44,766 nt of DNA from a virus (lineage: Duplodnaviria > Heunggongvirae > Uroviricota > Caudoviricetes), in the IMG/VR virus record IMGVR_UViG_2627854066_000006. One strand, written 5' to 3'. A program made the position numbers and the translations under genes. Positions 5,402 to 44,766 of the stretch are shown piece after piece. The notes beneath the pieces were generated by a model. The model searched no databases. It was not told the DNA's origin and worked only from the letters and a program-made list of their open reading frames with translations. Every line of letters starts with the position of its first letter. The stretch's first letter is position 1.

Positions 5402-5459
5402 AAAAAGGGCGGCAGAGCAGTCACGGAGTAAAACTGATACCGCCAAACGTCACCAGAAA
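5402..5459 (-). ncRNA. dicF: DicF small RNA (ftsZ-targeting sRNA of the dicB operon)
   Basis: Minus-strand sequence TTTCTGGTGACGTTTGGCGGTATCAGTTTTACTCCGTGACTGCTCTGCCGCCCTTTTT matches recalled dicF and ends in a GC hairpin plus U-run. Lies between ydfC and dicB. Ends approximate. Confidence 0.75.
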
Positions 5460-7804: not shown

Positions 7805-7875
7805 CTGACAATAGCCATATCGAATCGCTTCCGGCAACTCGTGAGTAAAAAGATTCGGTATCAGAAGAGGTGAGT

Positions 7876-8946
7876 ATGGCTAACGCCTGGCTCAGATTAT
7901 GGCATGACATGCCAAATGACCCTAAGTGGCGAACAATTGCCAGGGTGTCAGGGCAGCCAATTGCAACAGTGATGGCAGTGTATATCCACCTCCTGGTGAG
8001 CGCGTCACGAAATGTCACGCGAGGTCACATTGATGTCACGACAGAAGATTTGGCAAGTGCGCTCGACGTGACAGAAGAGGTAATTGATTCAATTTTGCAG
8101 ACGATGCAGGGGCGGGTACTTGATGGTGATTTAATCACTGGATGGGAAAAACGCCAGGTGCTTAAAGAGGACAACGGCAATATTTCGCAAACCGCAAAAT
8201 CTCCTGCAGAGCGCAAGAGGGCGCAGCGAGAGAGGGAAAGAAAGCAGGAACAAAATGGCGATTGTCACGGCGCGTCACGAAATGTCACGCACATGTCACG
8301 ACGAGTCACGACAGATAAAGATACAGATAAAGATACAGATCAAGAAGATCAAAACACTATGGTCCATGGCGTAAAAAACGCCACGAACCAGGCAGGGGAT
8401 GTTCAGACCGTCAATCCTGGTCAGCCAGCAGGCACGACACCGGAAGCCGATTCAGCGTATGCGCTGAAAGCCGATTCGGGCGCTGTGCAGCAGGTGATGA
8501 CCGCAAGGCCGGAGCAATCACACCAACTGCAGCAGCCTGAAGCCGATTCCGCCATTCAGCGGGAAGCCGATCGGGTAGTCCCGGAAAACACCGGGCAGCC
8601 TGTGGGACGAGTAGATTATCCGGATGTGTTCGAACAGGTCTGGCGGGAATACCCGTTGCGTGCTGGGGCAAACCCGAAGAAATCCGCTTTCAGTGCCTGG
8701 AAGGCCAGATTACGCGAGGGGGTGCCACCAGAGGCCATGCTGGATGGTGTGAGGCGTTACGCAAGATACCTGGCGGCTACCGGGAAAACGGGAACGGAAT
8801 TTGTTCAGCGAGCGACGACGTTTTTTGGACCGGACCGGAATTTTGAGAACCCTTGGTTGCTCCCGGTAAGCGGCACGAACAACCAGCGTTGTGTGAATCA
8901 TATTTCTGAACCGGATAACGAAATTCCGCCGGGCTTCAGGGGGTAA
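7876..8946 (+). CDS. Phage replication initiation protein (lambda O-like organisation, internal origin)
   Basis: N-terminus MANAWLRLWHDMPNDPKWRTIARVSG; repeat-rich linker (DKDTDKDTD, EADSA repeats); iteron clusters inside the gene. No P/DnaC-like loader gene follows. Confidence 0.65.
   Translation: MANAWLRLWHDMPNDPKWRTIARVSGQPIATVMAVYIHLLVSASRNVTRGHIDVTTEDLASALDVTEEVIDSILQTMQGRVLDGDLITGWEKRQVLKEDNGNISQTAKSPAERKRAQRERERKQEQNGDCHGASRNVTHMSRRVTTDKDTDKDTDQEDQNTMVHGVKNATNQAGDVQTVNPGQPAGTTPEADSAYALKADSGAVQQVMTARPEQSHQLQQPEADSAIQREADRVVPENTGQPVGRVDYPDVFEQVWREYPLRAGANPKKSAFSAWKARLREGVPPEAMLDGVRRYARYLAATGKTGTEFVQRATTFFGPDRNFENPWLLPVSGTNNQRCVNHISEPDNEIPPGFRG
8004..8310. repeat. Iteron arrays (GTCAC[G/A], 10-11 bp phasing) inside the replication gene; putative ori
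   Basis: Four copies at about 8004, 8014, 8024, 8035 and five at about 8264, 8274, 8284, 8295, 8305, followed by AT-rich tandem AGATAAAGATAC repeats (8311-8350). Confidence 0.6.
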
Positions 8947-8986: not shown

Positions 8987-9412
8987 GTGGCAAAAGTATT
9001 TACACAAGAAGAGCGGGAAAAAATTAAGAGGCAGGTTGTTGAACTCGTGCGCCTGAGCGGGCGCGAGACGTTACGACAACTGGAAGCGAAAACAGGTGCG
9101 ACAAGATATCTGATGAGTGTTCTCGCCAGAGAGCTGGTTGCCAGTGGCGATGTATACAATTCTGGCTACGGGTTATTCCCGTCTGAACAGGCGCGTAAGG
9201 ACTGGCAAAATGCCCGCAAAAAACTCTCAAGGGCAAAGGTGAAGAAACCTGCAGTGGTTGATCCGGACCTTATCTGGTCGTTACCAGACGGCGAAATACG
9301 CCGCTACGACAGGCGCCTGAATATAATCTGTCGCGAGTGCCGGAAGAGCGAAGCTATGCAGCGTGTACTGGCATTTTATCAAGGAAATGTTAGGTATTTT
9401 AGACGTTACTAG
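8987..9412 (+). CDS. Hypothetical phage protein
   Basis: 141-aa ORF with GTG start and CAGGAGGG RBS; basic C-terminus; no family recognised. Confidence 0.5.
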   Translation: MAKVFTQEEREKIKRQVVELVRLSGRETLRQLEAKTGATRYLMSVLARELVASGDVYNSGYGLFPSEQARKDWQNARKKLSRAKVKKPAVVDPDLIWSLPDGEIRRYDRRLNIICRECRKSEAMQRVLAFYQGNVRYFRRY

Positions 9413-9565
9413 ATTAAAGAGCATTAGTTCAGATGTGAATTGACATTTTCATGGCGCAGGGTAGAGCCAGCGTGGTTGTCCGCTTTGCGTCAAAACCAGA
9501 TATTACCAGATTTAGACATATATTCCCGATAGCCCTGCTCTGATGCTACACTCTGTGCTATTTTC

Positions 9566-10252
9566 ATGACCCCAATAAAAATATTTATGACTATTGCTGA
9601 TTTCAAACGGCCTAAATTGGAGCTCCCAAACGGGGCAAACAAACTACTACTGCACTCTTGCTGTGCTCCATGTTCCGGTGAAGTGATGGAGGCGCTTCAG
9701 GCCTCGGGAATCGACTACACCATCTTTTTCTACAACCCGAACATTCATCCTCAGAAAGAGTATTTAATTCGTAAGGATGAAAATATTCGCTTTGCTGAAC
9801 AACACGGCGTGCCGTTTATCGATGCTGATTACGACACCGACAACTGGTTTGAACGTGCCAAAGGAATGGAATGGGAGCCTGAGAGGGGGATCCGTTGTAC
9901 CATGTGTTTTGACATGCGTTTTGAGCGGACAGCGTTGTACGCTGCTGAAAATGGTTTCAGTGTGATCAGCAGTTCACTGGGCATTTCACGCTGGAAAAAT
10001 ATGCAGCAGGTTAACGAGTGTGGGCGGCGAGCTGTTGCGCATTATCCGGGTATGGTGTACTGGGATTATAACTGGCGCAAGCAGGGCGGCTCGTCCCGTA
10101 TGATTGAAATCAGCAAGCGCGAAAAATTCTATCAGCAGGAATATTGTGGCTGTGTGTATTCTCTGCGCGATACCAATCTACACCGCAAATCTCAGGGACG
10201 CCCTCTTATCAAAATTGGCCAACTCCACTACGGAAAAGAAGAGAAGGAGTGA
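9566..10252 (+). CDS. QueH-family (DUF208) epoxyqueuosine reductase-like protein
   Basis: [18 protein letters not shown] and EYCGCVYS cysteine motifs in QueH-typical order and spacing. Start may be the second ATG at 9587. Confidence 0.7.
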
Positions 10253-10489
10253 TTTTATGGATCACCTTTCTGATTGATTTCATATTGGCGAGGTGACGTG
10301 AGTTAAGTAGAATGGCTGCGGGTGCTTGAGGCTATCTGTCTCAGGCATGAACACTGAAAGGCAGATAGAGAAAAGCCCCAGTTAACATTACGCGTCCGGC
10401 AAGACGCTTAACATTAATCTGAGGCTCAATCTATGAACGGCAAATCTAGGTTAGCCTCTTACGTGCCGAAAGGCAAGGAGAAGCAGGCT

Positions 10490-10645
10490 ATGAAGCAGCA
10501 AAAGGCGATGTTAATCGCCCTGATCGTCATCTGTTTAACCGTCATTGTGACGGCACTGGTAACGAGGAAAGACCTCTGCGAGGTACGAATCCGAACCGGC
10601 CAGACGGAGGTCGCTGTCTTCACAGCTTACGAACCTGAGGAGTAA
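10490..10645 (+). CDS. hokD: Hok/Gef-family type I toxin
   Basis: 51 aa MKQQKAMLIALIVICLTVIVTALVTRKDLCEVRIRTGQTEVAVFTAYEPEE, as recalled for HokD/RelF. In-frame upstream extension to 10433 (mok-like leader). Confidence 0.8.
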   Translation: MKQQKAMLIALIVICLTVIVTALVTRKDLCEVRIRTGQTEVAVFTAYEPEE

Positions 10646-10712
10646 GAGACCTGGCGAGGGAGAAATCCCTCGCCACCTCTGATGAGTCAGGCATCCTCAA
10701 CGCACCCGCACT

Positions 10713-10740
10713 TAACCCGCTTCGGCGGGTTTTGTTTTTT
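10713..10740 (+). terminator. Rho-independent terminator downstream of hok
   Basis: ACCCGC-TTCG-GCGGGT hairpin followed by TTTGTTTTTT. Confidence 0.55.
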
Positions 10741-12148: not shown

Positions 12149-12481
12149 ATGCTCATAGATTTGGTTTTACCTTACCCGCCGACGGTGAACACTTACTGGC
12201 GACGCCGTGGCAGCACATATTTTATCTCGGAGGAGGGAAAGCGTTATCGCCGGGCTGTGGCGCTTATTGTTCGCCAGCAGCGGCTGAAATTAAGCCTGTC
12301 CGGAAGGCTGGCGATAAAGGTGATTGCAGAGCCACCGGATAAGCGTCGTCGCGACCTGGACAATATCCTGAAAGCACCGCTGGATGCGCTGACGCATGCG
12401 GGAGTGTTAATGGACGATGAGCAGTTTGATGAAATCAATATCGTTCGTGGTCAGCCAGTATCTGGTGGACGTCTGGGGTGA
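12149..12481 (+). CDS. rusA: Holliday junction resolvase RusA
   Basis: LVLPYPPTVNTYWRRRG...PDKRRRDLDNILKAPLDALTHAGVLMDDEQ matches the RusA motif pattern. C-terminus ends at ...GGRLG, about 10 aa shorter than recalled K-12 RusA. Confidence 0.8.
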   Translation: MLIDLVLPYPPTVNTYWRRRGSTYFISEEGKRYRRAVALIVRQQRLKLSLSGRLAIKVIAEPPDKRRRDLDNILKAPLDALTHAGVLMDDEQFDEINIVRGQPVSGGRLG

Positions 12482-12518
12482 AGATTTACCCCATAATGCA
12501 TTAAGAGCAGGTCAAAAA

Positions 12519-13340
12519 ATGAAACTGGAAGATTTACCGAAATACTACTCCCCAAAATCCCCTGGCCTGACCGATGCATCGGCCTCAACGTCAAAAGATG
12601 CGCTGAGTATCACTGATGTGATGGCCGCGCAGGGCATGACACAGAATCGGGCTGAGATGGGTTTTTCTGCGTTCCTGGGGAAAATGGGCATCAGTATGAA
12701 TGACAGGGCGCGGGCAACAGAATTACTGGCAGATTATGCACTCAGTCGGTGCGATCGTGTGGCGGCGTTGAGAAAACTTCCGGCAGAAATAAAACCGGTA
12801 GTGATGCGCATTATGGCTTCGTACGCTTTTGAGGATTATGCCCGCAGCGCAGCGAGTAAAAAGCAGTGCCCTTGTTGCTATGGGGAAAAATTTATTGAAA
12901 GCATAGTTTTTACAAACAAGGTCCAGTATCCGGATGGTAAGCCGCCGGTATGGGCAAAGTGTACGAAAGGTGTGTATCCGTCTTACTGGGAAGAATGGAA
13001 AAAAGTCAGGGAGGTGGTAAAAGTTGCGTGTCCGGAGTGTGGCGGAAAGGGTGAGGTTTCCACCGCCTGTAAGGATTGCCGTGGGCGTGGTGTCGCCATT
13101 CATCGTGAAGAGTCGGTAAAACGTGGTATGCCTGTTATCAGAGACTGCCAGCGTTGTGGTGGTCGTGGCTATGAAAGACTACCATCAACGGAGGCATTTA
13201 ATGCCATACGCAAAGTGACGAGTGCTATCACGCTTGATACGTGGAAAAAATCAGTGAAACGCTTTTACGATACGTTGGTGGTTCGGTTTGACATTGAAGA
13301 GGCATGGGCGGAGCGGCAGTTAAAGAGGGTAACGCGATAG
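12519..13340 (+). CDS. Putative late-gene antiterminator Q-like protein with four CxxC(xGxG) zinc-finger repeats
   Basis: 273 aa from the internal Met with AAGAGCAGG RBS; motifs CPCCYGEK, CPECGGKGE, CKDCRGRG, CQRCGGRG. Sits between rusA and the lysis region. Q assignment is positional. Confidence 0.5.
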   Translation: MKLEDLPKYYSPKSPGLTDASASTSKDALSITDVMAAQGMTQNRAEMGFSAFLGKMGISMNDRARATELLADYALSRCDRVAALRKLPAEIKPVVMRIMASYAFEDYARSAASKKQCPCCYGEKFIESIVFTNKVQYPDGKPPVWAKCTKGVYPSYWEEWKKVREVVKVACPECGGKGEVSTACKDCRGRGVAIHREESVKRGMPVIRDCQRCGGRGYERLPSTEAFNAIRKVTSAITLDTWKKSVKRFYDTLVVRFDIEEAWAERQLKRVTR

Positions 13341-20312: not shown

Positions 20313-20494
20313 ATGTTTCTGATAATTCTCGCGCCACTGGTGGGCATGCTGGGTGCGCTTTTGCTGGCGTATGGTGCCTGGCTGATTTATCCCCGGCGGG
20401 TTTTGTTGTTGCCGGGGTGCTGTGCCTGTTCTGGTCGTGGCTGGTGGCGCGATATCTCGACCGTACACAGCCGTCTGTCGGCGGAGGTAAATAG
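20313..20494 (+). pseudogene. Small two-TM membrane protein gene between terL and portal, apparently frameshifted
   Basis: Frame 1 has RBS GAGGT + ATG and encodes [26 protein letters not shown]...; frame 2 continues ...[32 protein letters not shown] and stops in a TAGTG overlap with the portal start. Frames switch near the run TATCCCCGGCGGG. Confidence 0.3.
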
Positions 20495-21318
20495 TGTTCT
20501 TTTCGGGATTATTTCAACGAAAAAGTGACGCGCCGGTGACCACGCCAGCAGAGCTGGCGGATGCCATCGGGTTGTCTTACGACACCTATACCGGAAAGCA
20601 GATCAGCAGTCAGCGGGCCATGCGACTGACGGCGGTTTTTTCCTGCGTCAGAGTGCTGGCAGAGTCGGTCGGGATGTTGCCCTGCAATCTGTATCACCTG
20701 AACGGCAGCCTGAAACAGAGGGCCACCGGCGAACGTCTGCATAAGCTGATCTCCACGCATCCCAATGGCTATATGACGCCGCAGGAGTTCTGGGAGCTGG
20801 TGGTCACCTGTCTGTGCCTGAGGGGAAACTTTTACGCCTACAAAGTGAAAGCATTTGGCGAAGTGGCTGAACTGCTGCCCGTCGATCCCGGTTGTGTGGT
20901 ACCGAAGCTTAACAGTCGCTGGGAGCCGGTCTATCAGGTCACATTCCCGGACGGTTCCACGGATGTACTGAGCCAGGAAGATATCTGGCATGTGCGCACG
21001 CTGACGCTGGACGGTCTGGTGGGACTGAATCCCATCGCCTATGCCCGCGAGGCAATATCGCTGGCAGCAGCGACCGAAGAGCACGGGGCCAGACTGTTCA
21101 GCAATGGTGCGGTGACGTCCGGTGTGTTGCGTACAGAACAGACGCTGTCGGATCAGGCTTATGAGCGCCTGAAGAAAGATTTTGAGGAGCGTCACACCGG
21201 GCTTGGCAATGCTCACCGCCCGATGATCCTTGAGATGGGGCTGGACTGGAAGTCGATGGCGCTGAACGCCGAGGACAGCCAGTTCCTGGAAACCCGCAAG
21301 TTTCAGCTTGACGTATAG
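20494..21318 (+). pseudogene. Portal protein (HK97 family), N-terminal fragment; gene disrupted by IS91-family insertion
   Basis: GTG start with GGAGG RBS; 274 aa ending ...ETRKFQ then LDV-stop from IS sequence. The C-terminal 143 aa resume at 23017. Confidence 0.75.
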
Positions 21319-21481
21319 GAAATTGAAAAACCAGACGATACCGCTGTCCACGCCTTATGCCACGTGAGCCTTTCTGCTTTTCCCTCCACTCCGGTGGTTT
21401 CTCTCTCTGCATGGTCGATTTTTATACCGTAACAGGCTGTTTTTTATACCTGCACCGATTCCCGGGCACACTTAGCCTGTG

Positions 21482-22690
21482 TCAGGCCGGCATATACCTC
21501 AGCAGACTGATATCCCGCGCGTTTTTCTTCAGCCCTGATACATTCAGCCCCGCAATGGCCCGGCGGTATACCATCCGGCCGCCACACAGCACGCATTCGA
21601 ACGGGTCACGACTCAGGAACTGTTTCACCATTTGTGCATAGCACACTTTCGCCACTGGTTCCGGCTTATCCATCCCCAGAGCACGGTACACCTGCGGCAG
21701 CTTCTCTCCACACACCCGGTTGGCAAGGAACCCGAAGTATCTCACCATCTTAAAAAACTTCTCCGGGATGTGCTGTTTCAGCCTCGCGACCAGCTCCCGC
21801 TGTGTCAGCGTTTCCGTCGCCGTTTCTCCCGTTTTGTGGTCCAGGTAACGGAAGCTCAGACTCGCTCCTCCGTTGTAATGCGCCAGCCGGGAAGCCGCTA
21901 TTGGTGGCTTCTTCAGATAACGACCCAGGTAGCGTGCCGTATTCCGCCCTCCGGCTGTCTTCTTCGACATGTACACATGCCAGTATTTTCCGCCGGCTTT
22001 CAGCACCAGGCTTCTCCACTGTGATTCCGTCGTGATATGTGACAACGATTCCGGCATCGCCAGACCTTCTGACCACGCTTTCAGAAGCAGCTGCCGCATA
22101 TTCCACATCCACCGCGAACGCATCGCGTCTTTCAGGAAGCTCAGCTTTTTCCAGTGTCCGTGTTTATTCAGACCTCCGCAGGTCACTGACACATGCACAT
22201 GCGGATGCCAGTTGAGACGACGGCCATACGTATGGATGGCGCAGAAGATACCGGGTTCCAGACCCCGTTTCCGGGCTGCATACAGCAGATTCTCCACCGC
22301 CAGACGGCACACGTCATTCAGCAGCCAGCGGTTGCTTTCGAACACCGGCCACAGCGTGTCCGGCAGGGTGAAGACCAGGTGCACCCAGTCGCAGTCAGGA
22401 AGACGATTCAGCTGTGTCGCTATCCACAGGTCTGTGGCCTTTTTTCCGCAGGACGGGCAGGCACGGCTGCCACATGAGTTAGTGACGTATCTGACGTGGG
22501 GGCACTCAGGTTTATCGCAGTTGTATTCCTTCACACCCAGTATCCGCGTGCCGCAGGCCAGCATTTTTGTGACAGCCTCAACCTCGATATCGCGCAGGCC
22601 GCCCGCATCCAGGAAGGATGTCCAGCACTGGTTGGCTGTGAACAGGCGTTTCAGCGGTCGGGGCTGAAAATCACCACCACTTCGGGTCAT
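21482..22690 (-). CDS. tnpA: IS91-family transposase
   Basis: 402 aa with N-terminal zinc-binding cysteines (CDKPECPHVRY...CGSRACPSCGKK) and HUH motif region HTYGRRLNWHPHVHV. Confidence 0.75.
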   Translation of the reverse strand: MTRSGGDFQPRPLKRLFTANQCWTSFLDAGGLRDIEVEAVTKMLACGTRILGVKEYNCDKPECPHVRYVTNSCGSRACPSCGKKATDLWIATQLNRLPDCDWVHLVFTLPDTLWPVFESNRWLLNDVCRLAVENLLYAARKRGLEPGIFCAIHTYGRRLNWHPHVHVSVTCGGLNKHGHWKKLSFLKDAMRSRWMWNMRQLLLKAWSEGLAMPESLSHITTESQWRSLVLKAGGKYWHVYMSKKTAGGRNTARYLGRYLKKPPIAASRLAHYNGGASLSFRYLDHKTGETATETLTQRELVARLKQHIPEKFFKMVRYFGFLANRVCGEKLPQVYRALGMDKPEPVAKVCYAQMVKQFLSRDPFECVLCGGRMVYRRAIAGLNVSGLKKNARDISLLRYMPA

Positions 22691-22943
22691 CCGCCTTCAT
22701 CTCCGCTTCAGTTTCGTATAAATCAAAACGACGGCAGGTATGGCAGAACGTGACGTATTCGTACGGTGAATCCGGGTACATTTTGTGGAAGGTTTCCCAG
22801 AAACAGACCGTACAGGAGGGATGACCGGCGATAAAGTCTGTAAATACAGACTGATAAGGGTGATTATTGGCCCTGGCGACGGCTTTCAGAACCTCTTTCA
22901 CCATTCTGGTGTGGACTTTCTGGTGCTCCAGGTTGTGTGACAT
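22671..22943 (-). CDS. IS91-family small accessory ORF upstream of tnpA
   Basis: 90-aa ORF overlapping the tnpA start, as in IS91-type elements. Confidence 0.5.
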   Translation of the reverse strand: MSHNLEHQKVHTRMVKEVLKAVARANNHPYQSVFTDFIAGHPSCTVCFWETFHKMYPDSPYEYVTFCHTCRRFDLYETEAEMKADDPKWW

Positions 22944-23016
22944 GGGAACTCATTCTGGATGGTTACTCTGAAAGCTCATATTCTGCCACACCACGATTTG
23001 CAGCCGCCAGGCTGCC

Positions 23017-23448
23017 GTGGTTCAAGAAATCTGTCGTCTGTTCCGGGTGCCGTTGCACATGGTGCAGAACACCGATCGCGCCACCTTCAACAATATCGAA
23101 GAGCTGGGGTTGGGATTTATCAACTATTCACTGGTGCCGTATCTGACCCGCATCGAACAGCGGATCAACACCGGACTGGTACGAAAAAGTAAGCAGGGCG
23201 TTTATTACGCCAAATTTAACGCCGGGGCGTTACTGCGCGGGGATATGAAGTCCCGTTTTGAAGCCTACGCCACCGGGATCAACTGGGGAATTTACTCTCC
23301 CAATGACTGCCGCGACCTGGAAGATATGAATCCGCGTCCCGGTGGTGATGTCTATCTCACACCGATGAACATGACCACGAAACCCTCCGATGGCAGTAAA
23401 GCCGGTAAGCAGAAGGATAACGCCAATGCAGACGAAACAACGTCTTGA
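23017..23448 (+). pseudogene. Portal protein, C-terminal fragment
   Basis: Resumes VQEICRLFRVPLHMVQNTDRATFNNIEELGLGF...; in line with the N-fragment if the IS is removed. Confidence 0.7.
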
Positions 23449-44185: not shown

Positions 44186-44766
44186 TGGCATTCAGAATGA
44201 GTGAACAAGCACGGACCATAAAAATTTATAACCTGCTGGCCGGAACTAATGAATTTATTGGTGAAGGTGACGCATATATTCCGCCTCATACAGGTCTGCC
44301 TGCAAACAGTACCGATATTGCACCGCCAGATATTCCGGCAGGCTTCGTGGCTGTTTTCAACAGTGATGAGGCATCGTGGCATCTCGTTGAAGACCATCGT
44401 GGTAAAACGGTCTATGACGTGGCTTCCGGCGACGCGTTATTTATTTCTGAACTCGGCTCATTACCGGAAAATGTCACCTGGTTATCCCCGGAAGGGGAGT
44501 TTCAGAAGTGGAACGGCACAGCCTGGGTGAAAGATGCAGAAGCAGAAAAACTGTTCCGGATCCGGGAGGCGGAAGAAACAAAAAACAGCCTGATGCAGGT
44601 AGCCAGCGAGCATATTGCGCCGCTTCAGGATGCTGCAGATCTGGAAATTGCAACGGAGGAAGAAACCTCATTGCTGGAAGCCTGGAAAAAGTATCGGGTG
44701 TTGCTGAACCGTGTTAATACAACAACTGCACCGGATATTGAATGGCCAGTAGCACCTATAGGGTAA
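44185..44766 (+). CDS. tfa: Tail fibre assembly protein Tfa
   Basis: [54 protein letters not shown]... matches recalled lambda Tfa; ATAATG overlap with the stf stop; complete with stop at the window end. Confidence 0.85.

Follow-up and report, generated by a model that had tools for sequence, protein, structure and literature searches.

Escherichia coli does not synthesise the corrin ring de novo, and because its epoxyqueuosine reductase QueG is cobalamin-dependent, the queuosine (Q) status of this species has so far been regarded as B12-dependent. QueG is a cobalamin/[4Fe-4S] enzyme (PMC4646009, PMC5175355), and in E. coli cobalamin dependence has been demonstrated for the final step of Q synthesis (PMC4646009, citing Frey 1988; PMC5175355). 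QueH is a non-orthologous enzyme for the same step (PMC11130926). The window analysed here, i.e. the whole stretch of 44,766 nt deposited as IMG/VR record IMGVR_UViG_2627854066_000006, is a piece of E. coli chromosome in which mtfA and a tRNA-Ser gene (892-981) are followed by a Qin-like lambdoid prophage. Within this prophage lies an ORF that the initial annotation took for a QueH homologue. The locus raises the question of what a second type of epoxyqueuosine reductase would be doing in a temperate phage of a bacterium that has QueG.

The prophage ORF belongs to the QueH family

Two versions of the gene have to be distinguished:

9566-10252, plus strand: longest queH ORF in the ORF list, 228 aa, starting at ATG 9566
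9587-10252 (stop included), plus strand: likely queH coding sequence, 221 aa, based on homologue N-termini, allele comparison and PGAP (WP_000150294.1)

The prophage ORF is a genuine member of the QueH family. In a search against the QueH/DUF208 profile, which the initial annotation had named as a check, the protein matched Pfam PF02677 (QueH, DUF208) with E=1.1e-65 and 221.5 bits (cut-off 23.5) over profile positions 1-174 of 175. PF02677 was the sole Pfam family matched, and there was no match to a QueG model. With phmmer, residues 27-203 aligned to T. maritima QueH (PDB 7lc5) at 30-31% identity (E=7.8e-22). An AlphaFold2 model of the protein, built from 13 sequences, was of moderate confidence (pLDDT 71, pTM 0.74), and its top five PDB matches in Foldseek were all QueH, with 7lc7/7lc5 first (E ~5e-10, TM 0.55/0.68). 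Together with the cysteine motifs described below, these matches bear out the family assignment that had been made from the sequence alone. RefSeq already names the protein QueH (WP_000150294.1, start 9587) and lists it in about a thousand genomes. A search of NCBIfam gave no matching model for the protein, so PGAP's use of the QueH name must rest on other evidence.

ATG 9566 was rejected as the start codon. The N-termini of 12 close homologues line up with M8 (the Erwinia protein starts MTNPAFKRAKLELP), and the codon equivalent to 9566 is ATT in the divergent prophage allele of strain ST70, with ATG 9587 invariant among the alleles compared. Homologues, alleles and RefSeq all point to ATG 9587 (M8), and queH probably starts there and encodes 221 aa. 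Residue numbers given here nevertheless follow the 228-aa ORF. Among the PHROGs, the protein matched phrog_3217, labelled 'unknown function', which spans residues 41-228 only. The CCAPC motif at the N-terminus is missing from the PHROG 3217 model, and a probable reason is that the genes of many phages seem to have been called from M41, an internal ATG at window position 9686.

The predicted iron-sulphur ligands are complete

The initial annotation had rested its case on three cysteine motifs, and all three were found, at residues 28-37, 111-115 and 192-199:

9653-9676, plus strand: HSCCAPCS codons, within the 10-residue motif 28-37; C32, C33 and C36 correspond to T. maritima C9, C10 and D13 in the 7lc5 alignment
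9896-9910, plus strand: CTMCF codons (CxxC; C111, C114), residues 111-115, invariant in 13 close homologues
10139-10162, plus strand: EYCGCVYS codons (CxC; C194, C196), residues 192-199, invariant in close homologues

The full ligand set CC-x2-(C/D), CxxC, CxC is therefore present (C32, C33, C36, C111, C114, C194 and C196), and all seven residues are invariant in the 13 close homologues. Conservation reaches well beyond these relatives, as judged from about 150 representatives of a library clustered at 50% identity and aligned to the close-homologue profile. Among the representatives covering each position, C32 is Cys in 118/119 and C33 in 119/119, C111 is Cys in 137 and C114 in 133 of about 142, and C194 is Cys in 77/78 and C196 in 78/78. 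Position 36 is Cys in 114 of 119 and Asp in four, with the prophage protein having the majority Cys form.

The PDB holds C9S and D13N mutant structures of T. maritima QueH, which implies that these positions are mechanistically important. Li and co-workers reportedly found in 2021 that T. maritima QueH binds a [4Fe-4S] cluster and an adjacent iron. From the ligand residues and the absence of other domains, prophage QueH is predicted to bind a [4Fe-4S] cluster and an extra iron and to have no need of cobalamin. It shares with the T. maritima enzyme (PDB 7lc5, 7lc7, 9deu) the whole domain, the fold and the CC..C/D, CxxC and CxC motifs, but differs in having Cys in place of Asp13, in a C-terminal tail some 25 residues long, found also in its close gammaproteobacterial homologues, and in being encoded by a temperate phage instead of a chromosome. 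Overall, the prophage protein is very probably an active QueH.

queH is cargo in a variable slot of lambdoid phages

The prophage left arm carries, in order, an integrase, a large 3'-5' exonuclease gene, dicB, DicF, ydfC and ydfB. The DicF sRNA was located at 5407-5458 on the minus strand (76.7 bits), and its occurrence with dicB, ydfC and ydfB makes this arm Qin-like. Repressor and cro-like genes, YdaT and a replication-organiser-like ORF (7870-8946) come next, and then DUF977 (8987-9412), queH, sok/hok, DUF968, RusA and antiterminator Q, with lysis, terminase, portal, head and tail genes in the right part. In agreement with the position first proposed for it, queH lies past the replication genes and ahead of hok. 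Its immediate neighbours delimit the slot:

8987-9412, plus strand: DUF977 gene, left edge of the cargo slot (Pfam PF06163, E=4.4e-28)
10320-10645, plus strand: hok/sok (hokD-type) toxin-antitoxin, here the right-hand boundary of the slot (Rfam sok 10320-10495, 111.9 bits; mok/hok ORF 10433-10645; hokD in PGAP)

This copy of the prophage is defective. Relative to the prophage of strain E7, to which it is otherwise 99.97% identical, it has a 1.7-kb insertion of an IS91-family element (21312-23020) that encodes a 402-aa transposase (Y2_Tnp + Zn_Tnp_IS91; 21482-22690, minus strand). The element leaves the portal gene in two pieces, 20494-21318 and 23017-23448, and the prophage should therefore be unable to form particles. 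The E7 annotation marks the integrase as frameshifted.

Between the replication genes and hok, queH is a cargo gene in a variable slot. Homology to phages without queH (mEp460, Tritos and Stx phages) restarts at about 10255, directly past the queH stop, and in mEp460 the slot is filled by an oppositely oriented, unrelated gene of 1.35 kb instead. In each of the five contexts inspected, queH was preceded by a DUF977 gene, either adjacent or with one small ORF between. Other E. coli queH prophages have differing replication modules (O-like, or YdaU/YdaV), and their genes downstream of queH vary between hokD, a DUF1971 gene and a KwaB-like gene. The isolated temperate phage HannyBb (45 kb) has a queH copy, 95% identical over the 228-aa ORF and annotated 'hypothetical protein', in the same slot between a Ren-like/DUF977 gene and mok/hok. 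Carriage in a lambdoid prophage, in an isolated phage and in a variable slot confirms that queH is phage cargo, as had been suggested. In IMG/VR, at least 191 contigs encode a relative. Outside E. coli, most tblastn matches bearing a 'phage' label lie in either short faecal contigs without annotation or 'phage' records of very large size, and these were set aside as evidence of phage carriage.

The slot also raises the question of whether QueH might serve in conflicts between phage and host or between phages, by acting on 7-deazaguanine-modified DNA or by altering the Q/oQ status of anticodons exposed to anticodon nucleases such as colicin E5-type toxins (oQ, epoxyqueuosine). In strain 7/2 (L088 4896-6535), a hypothetical protein and a 'Kiwa anti-phage protein KwaB-like domain' protein are encoded directly downstream of queH in place of hok, so the slot after DUF977 also gathers defence-type cargo, and both the modification of phage DNA and defence systems make use of 7-deazaguanine chemistry (PMC6884629, PMC13639016). 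Against such a role, QueH keeps the ligand set unaltered and has 78-86% identity to its housekeeping counterparts, and PADLOC-DB gave no match for QueH or the four neighbouring proteins. The prophage contains no further queuosine/7-deazaguanine gene, with no DpdA/TGT, QueC, QueD, QueE or QueA partner, and a DNA-modification cluster was accordingly dropped as a candidate. We know of no oQ-type base in DNA. The phage preQ0/G+ clusters resemble queH in being phage-borne and in their queuosine/7-deazaguanine metabolic neighbourhood (PMC6884629), but their FolE, QueD, QueE, QueC and DpdA modify phage DNA, whereas here there is a lone, Q-specific last-step gene predicted to act on tRNA. We consider a conflict role highly improbable and return to tRNA maturation as the preferred function.

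queH is an accessory gene that always coexists with queG

queH was detected in 995 of the 5426 complete E. coli genomes (18%), at 1017 places and with no more than two copies per genome. At least 80% of the gene is present in 985 of these 995 genomes, and 707 carry a version that is at least 99% identical. The carriers include O157:H7, ST131 and APEC strains. queG was found in 5426/5426 genomes, and prophage queH is therefore in every case an addition to QueG, never a substitute for it. The premise of the initial annotation, that the chromosomal enzyme of E. coli is the cobalamin-dependent QueG (PMC4646009, PMC5175355), thus holds throughout the species as sampled. QueG (YjeS) and prophage QueH share their predicted reaction and substrate, the conversion of oQ34-tRNA to Q34-tRNA (PMC4646009, PMC5175355, PMC11130926), but the two are non-homologous and differ in cofactor, and QueG is encoded by a core gene (5426/5426) whereas queH is accessory (995/5426). 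Coexistence of the two enzymes has been described in other bacteria: S. aureus has both QueG and QueH, whose differential expression was ascribed to cofactor availability (PMC13443448), and S. pyogenes and S. suis also have both (PMC12632869).

queH may have been captured together with its promoter

Prophage QueH is 78-86% identical to chromosomal QueH of Erwinia, Photorhabdus, Providencia, Proteus, Serratia and other Enterobacterales, and its identity to the copies in Pseudomonas, Stenotrophomonas, Sphingomonas and Neisseria is 75-80%; by sequence comparison, QueH is a very constrained enzyme. Chromosomal proteobacterial QueH proteins (Erwinia, Serratia, Photorhabdus, Providencia, Proteus and Rahnella; Sphingomonas, Stenotrophomonas and Neisseria) are thus alike over their full length (75-86%), and several genera share a similar extended -10-like motif, but their genes occupy a locus that is syntenic within the genus. 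Indeed, the queH loci of Serratia, Erwinia, Rahnella and Dickeya are each syntenic within the genus, as expected of housekeeping genes. Among 80 species-representative loci, a lambdoid context was shared only by E. albertii (100% identity), and in E. coli and E. albertii queH was found only in lambdoid prophage context. The nearest non-prophage relatives, in Scandinavium, Kluyvera and Enterobacter, are 88-92% identical and lie at non-syntenic chromosomal positions.

In Enterobacter sp. ECC-175 (L010 1270-6669), a chromosomal queH that is 89% identical lies just downstream of ORFs, the N-termini of which we take to be MnmA- and Icd-like. Since icd serves as an integration site of e14-type lambdoid prophages, the ECC-175 gene may be a prophage remnant.

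Two features upstream of queH bear on its expression:

9413-9586, plus strand: upstream intergenic region, with no riboswitch (Rfam) and no terminator-like site (scan)
9544-9552, plus strand: extended -10-like motif TGcTACACT, candidate queH promoter, conserved and ending about 34 nt ahead of ATG 9587

The block CTCTGATGCTACAC (9538-9551, around TGcTACACT) is the same, base for base, in four of the five prophage alleles compared, while that of strain 7/2 departs from it by one base (T to C). It is kept even in ST70, the flanks of which are unrelated. Upstream of chromosomal queH in Scandinavium, Kluyvera, Enterobacter and Symbiopectobacterium, the form TGnTA(C/T)A(A/C)T occurs 32-35 nt from the start codon in surroundings that are otherwise dissimilar, and Brenneria queH has a similar motif further upstream. 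As the motif is conserved across unrelated flanks and in chromosomal copies, we infer that queH was captured with its native promoter. This suggests that the gene brought its own promoter, which would make transcription independent of phage early transcription possible. No -35 element could be recognised at the candidate promoter, and the site went undetected in a strict consensus scan. No Shine-Dalgarno sequence was found ahead of ATG 9587; the phage and Enterobacteriaceae clade is without one, whereas queH of Serratia and Erwinia has one. A cobalamin or other riboswitch upstream of queH was also considered and rejected, with nothing in 9350-9586 in Rfam at the gathering threshold or at E<=1.

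Downstream, the terminator scan found none between the queH stop at 10252 and the hok terminator at 10714-10731, and without its own terminator queH is not a textbook self-contained moron. It resembles the lambdoid morons (lom, bor, hok/sok) in its variable slot, its absence from related phages and its candidate promoter, but differs in being without a terminator and in its product, a tRNA-modification enzyme in place of a surface, virulence or exclusion factor. Most queH expression could instead come from read-through of the early-right operon.

Such read-through would also fit an auxiliary role in the lytic cycle in place of lysogenic conversion, in which queH is transcribed with the delayed-early right genes after induction and Q is completed on host tRNAs, tuning NAU/NAC decoding in late phage genes. 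The orientation of queH is that of the early-right operon, there is no terminator-like site between DUF977, queH and hok, the gene is located upstream of the Q antiterminator, and it is kept by the viable phage HannyBb. However, the conserved native promoter-like motif favours autonomous expression, and queH is intact in defective prophages such as the one in the window with its IS91-family insertion in the portal gene and that of E7 with its frameshifted integrase. The short lytic period would also leave little time for re-modifying the tRNA pool. We regard a lytic-cycle role as unlikely, and favour expression of queH in the lysogen.

Prophage queH is under purifying selection

Full redundancy with queG on paper raises the possibility that queH is a neutral hitch-hiker, i.e. 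a chromosomal gene gained by illegitimate recombination, carried along as successful prophages spread, and of no benefit to phage or host. That the same slot accepts many unrelated genes, and that no phenotype is known for oQ versus Q, would be consistent with this. Pairwise Nei-Gojobori comparison of five prophage/phage alleles gave dN/dS of 0.05-0.09 with dS up to 0.45. The low dN/dS together with the high dS indicates enzyme-like purifying selection over a long residence in the phage gene pool, which argues against a neutral passenger. In agreement, at least 80% of the gene is kept in 985/995 genomes, and the promoter-like motif has been kept while the flanks were replaced. A neutral origin and spread is thus quite improbable in our view. 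Instead, we propose with moderate confidence that QueH is a conversion function that is expressed by lysogens and affects their fitness.

A proposed B12-independent route to Q in lysogens

In the model that we propose, queH and its own extended -10 promoter would have been captured from an enterobacterial chromosome, and the gene would now travel as stand-alone cargo (a 'moron') in the slot of Qin/lambda-like temperate phages. Without recourse to cobalamin, prophage QueH would reduce the oQ34 epoxide in host tRNA-Asp, -Asn, -His and -Tyr and so yield Q34. Since QueG is cobalamin-dependent and E. coli has no de novo corrin ring synthesis, prophage QueH would give the cell a second, B12-independent way to finish Q, and it would serve as a backup for QueG chiefly under cobalamin shortage or after the loss of cobalamin uptake. 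There are good grounds to expect such a B12-independent route in lysogens. The combination as a whole, a functional epoxyqueuosine reductase that was captured with its promoter, moves as stand-alone cargo and provides a second route to Q without B12, we consider likely.

What the host would gain is less certain. To our knowledge, no physiological difference between oQ-tRNA and Q-tRNA has been established, which makes the benefit conjectural. The strong purifying selection on a 'redundant' queH suggests that the oQ-to-Q step has physiological value. It is a tenable but tentative reading that a last Q step independent of B12 is disseminated by temperate E. coli phages as a lysogenic-conversion trait, the oQ-to-Q step having a real fitness value by which selection on the gene is maintained.

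In a 2019 survey of 7-deazaguanine genes, QueA, QueG and QueH were reported as absent from the viruses analysed (PMC6884629), and our literature searches on phage- or prophage-borne QueH found no paper describing one. The family and its reaction are known and the RefSeq name has already been given, and it is the phage setting that appears to be undescribed in the literature searched. If the proposal is true, about one in five E. coli strains would finish Q whatever their cobalamin supply, e.g. in B12-poor niches or upon loss of the BtuB receptor, and queH would be without precedent as a phage gene devoted to the maturation of an anticodon modification of host tRNA within the Q pathway. It would also offer a natural means of asking how oQ and Q differ. 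With a mobile, selected and B12-independent QueH present in 18% of complete genomes, Q/oQ status would come to differ between strains, which would be relevant to studies of tRNA modification, to codon-biased translation and to the host's queuine supply. PHROG 3217 ('unknown function') and the HannyBb gene ('hypothetical protein') could both be annotated QueH.

Further features of the prophage

The only tRNA gene within the window is the tRNA-Ser attachment site. Related queH prophages have tRNA arrays downstream of Q, either Ile-Lys-Thr-Gly (L001 16661-16970) or Thr-Gly (L086 8279-8432). A link of queH to phage-encoded tRNAs was dropped, as the Ile, Lys, Thr and Gly tRNAs of these related prophages are not Q-tRNAs. 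The antiterminator Q-family ORF in the window (12417-13340, plus strand) has a sub-threshold match to a DnaJ-type CXXCXGXG zinc finger (28.5 bits; cut-off 32.7). The longest Q ORF overlaps the end of rusA, and the start given by PGAP is further downstream. Just past hok, a sub-threshold Rfam match to isrK, an Hfq-binding sRNA, covers 10654-10735 on the plus strand (27.8 bits, gathering 50; E=0.0012), and its 3' end is the terminator-like hairpin at 10714-10731. Near the right end of the window, past the tail-fibre genes, the Rfam family IS009 gives a full-length match at 44528-44726 on the plus strand (225.6 bits).
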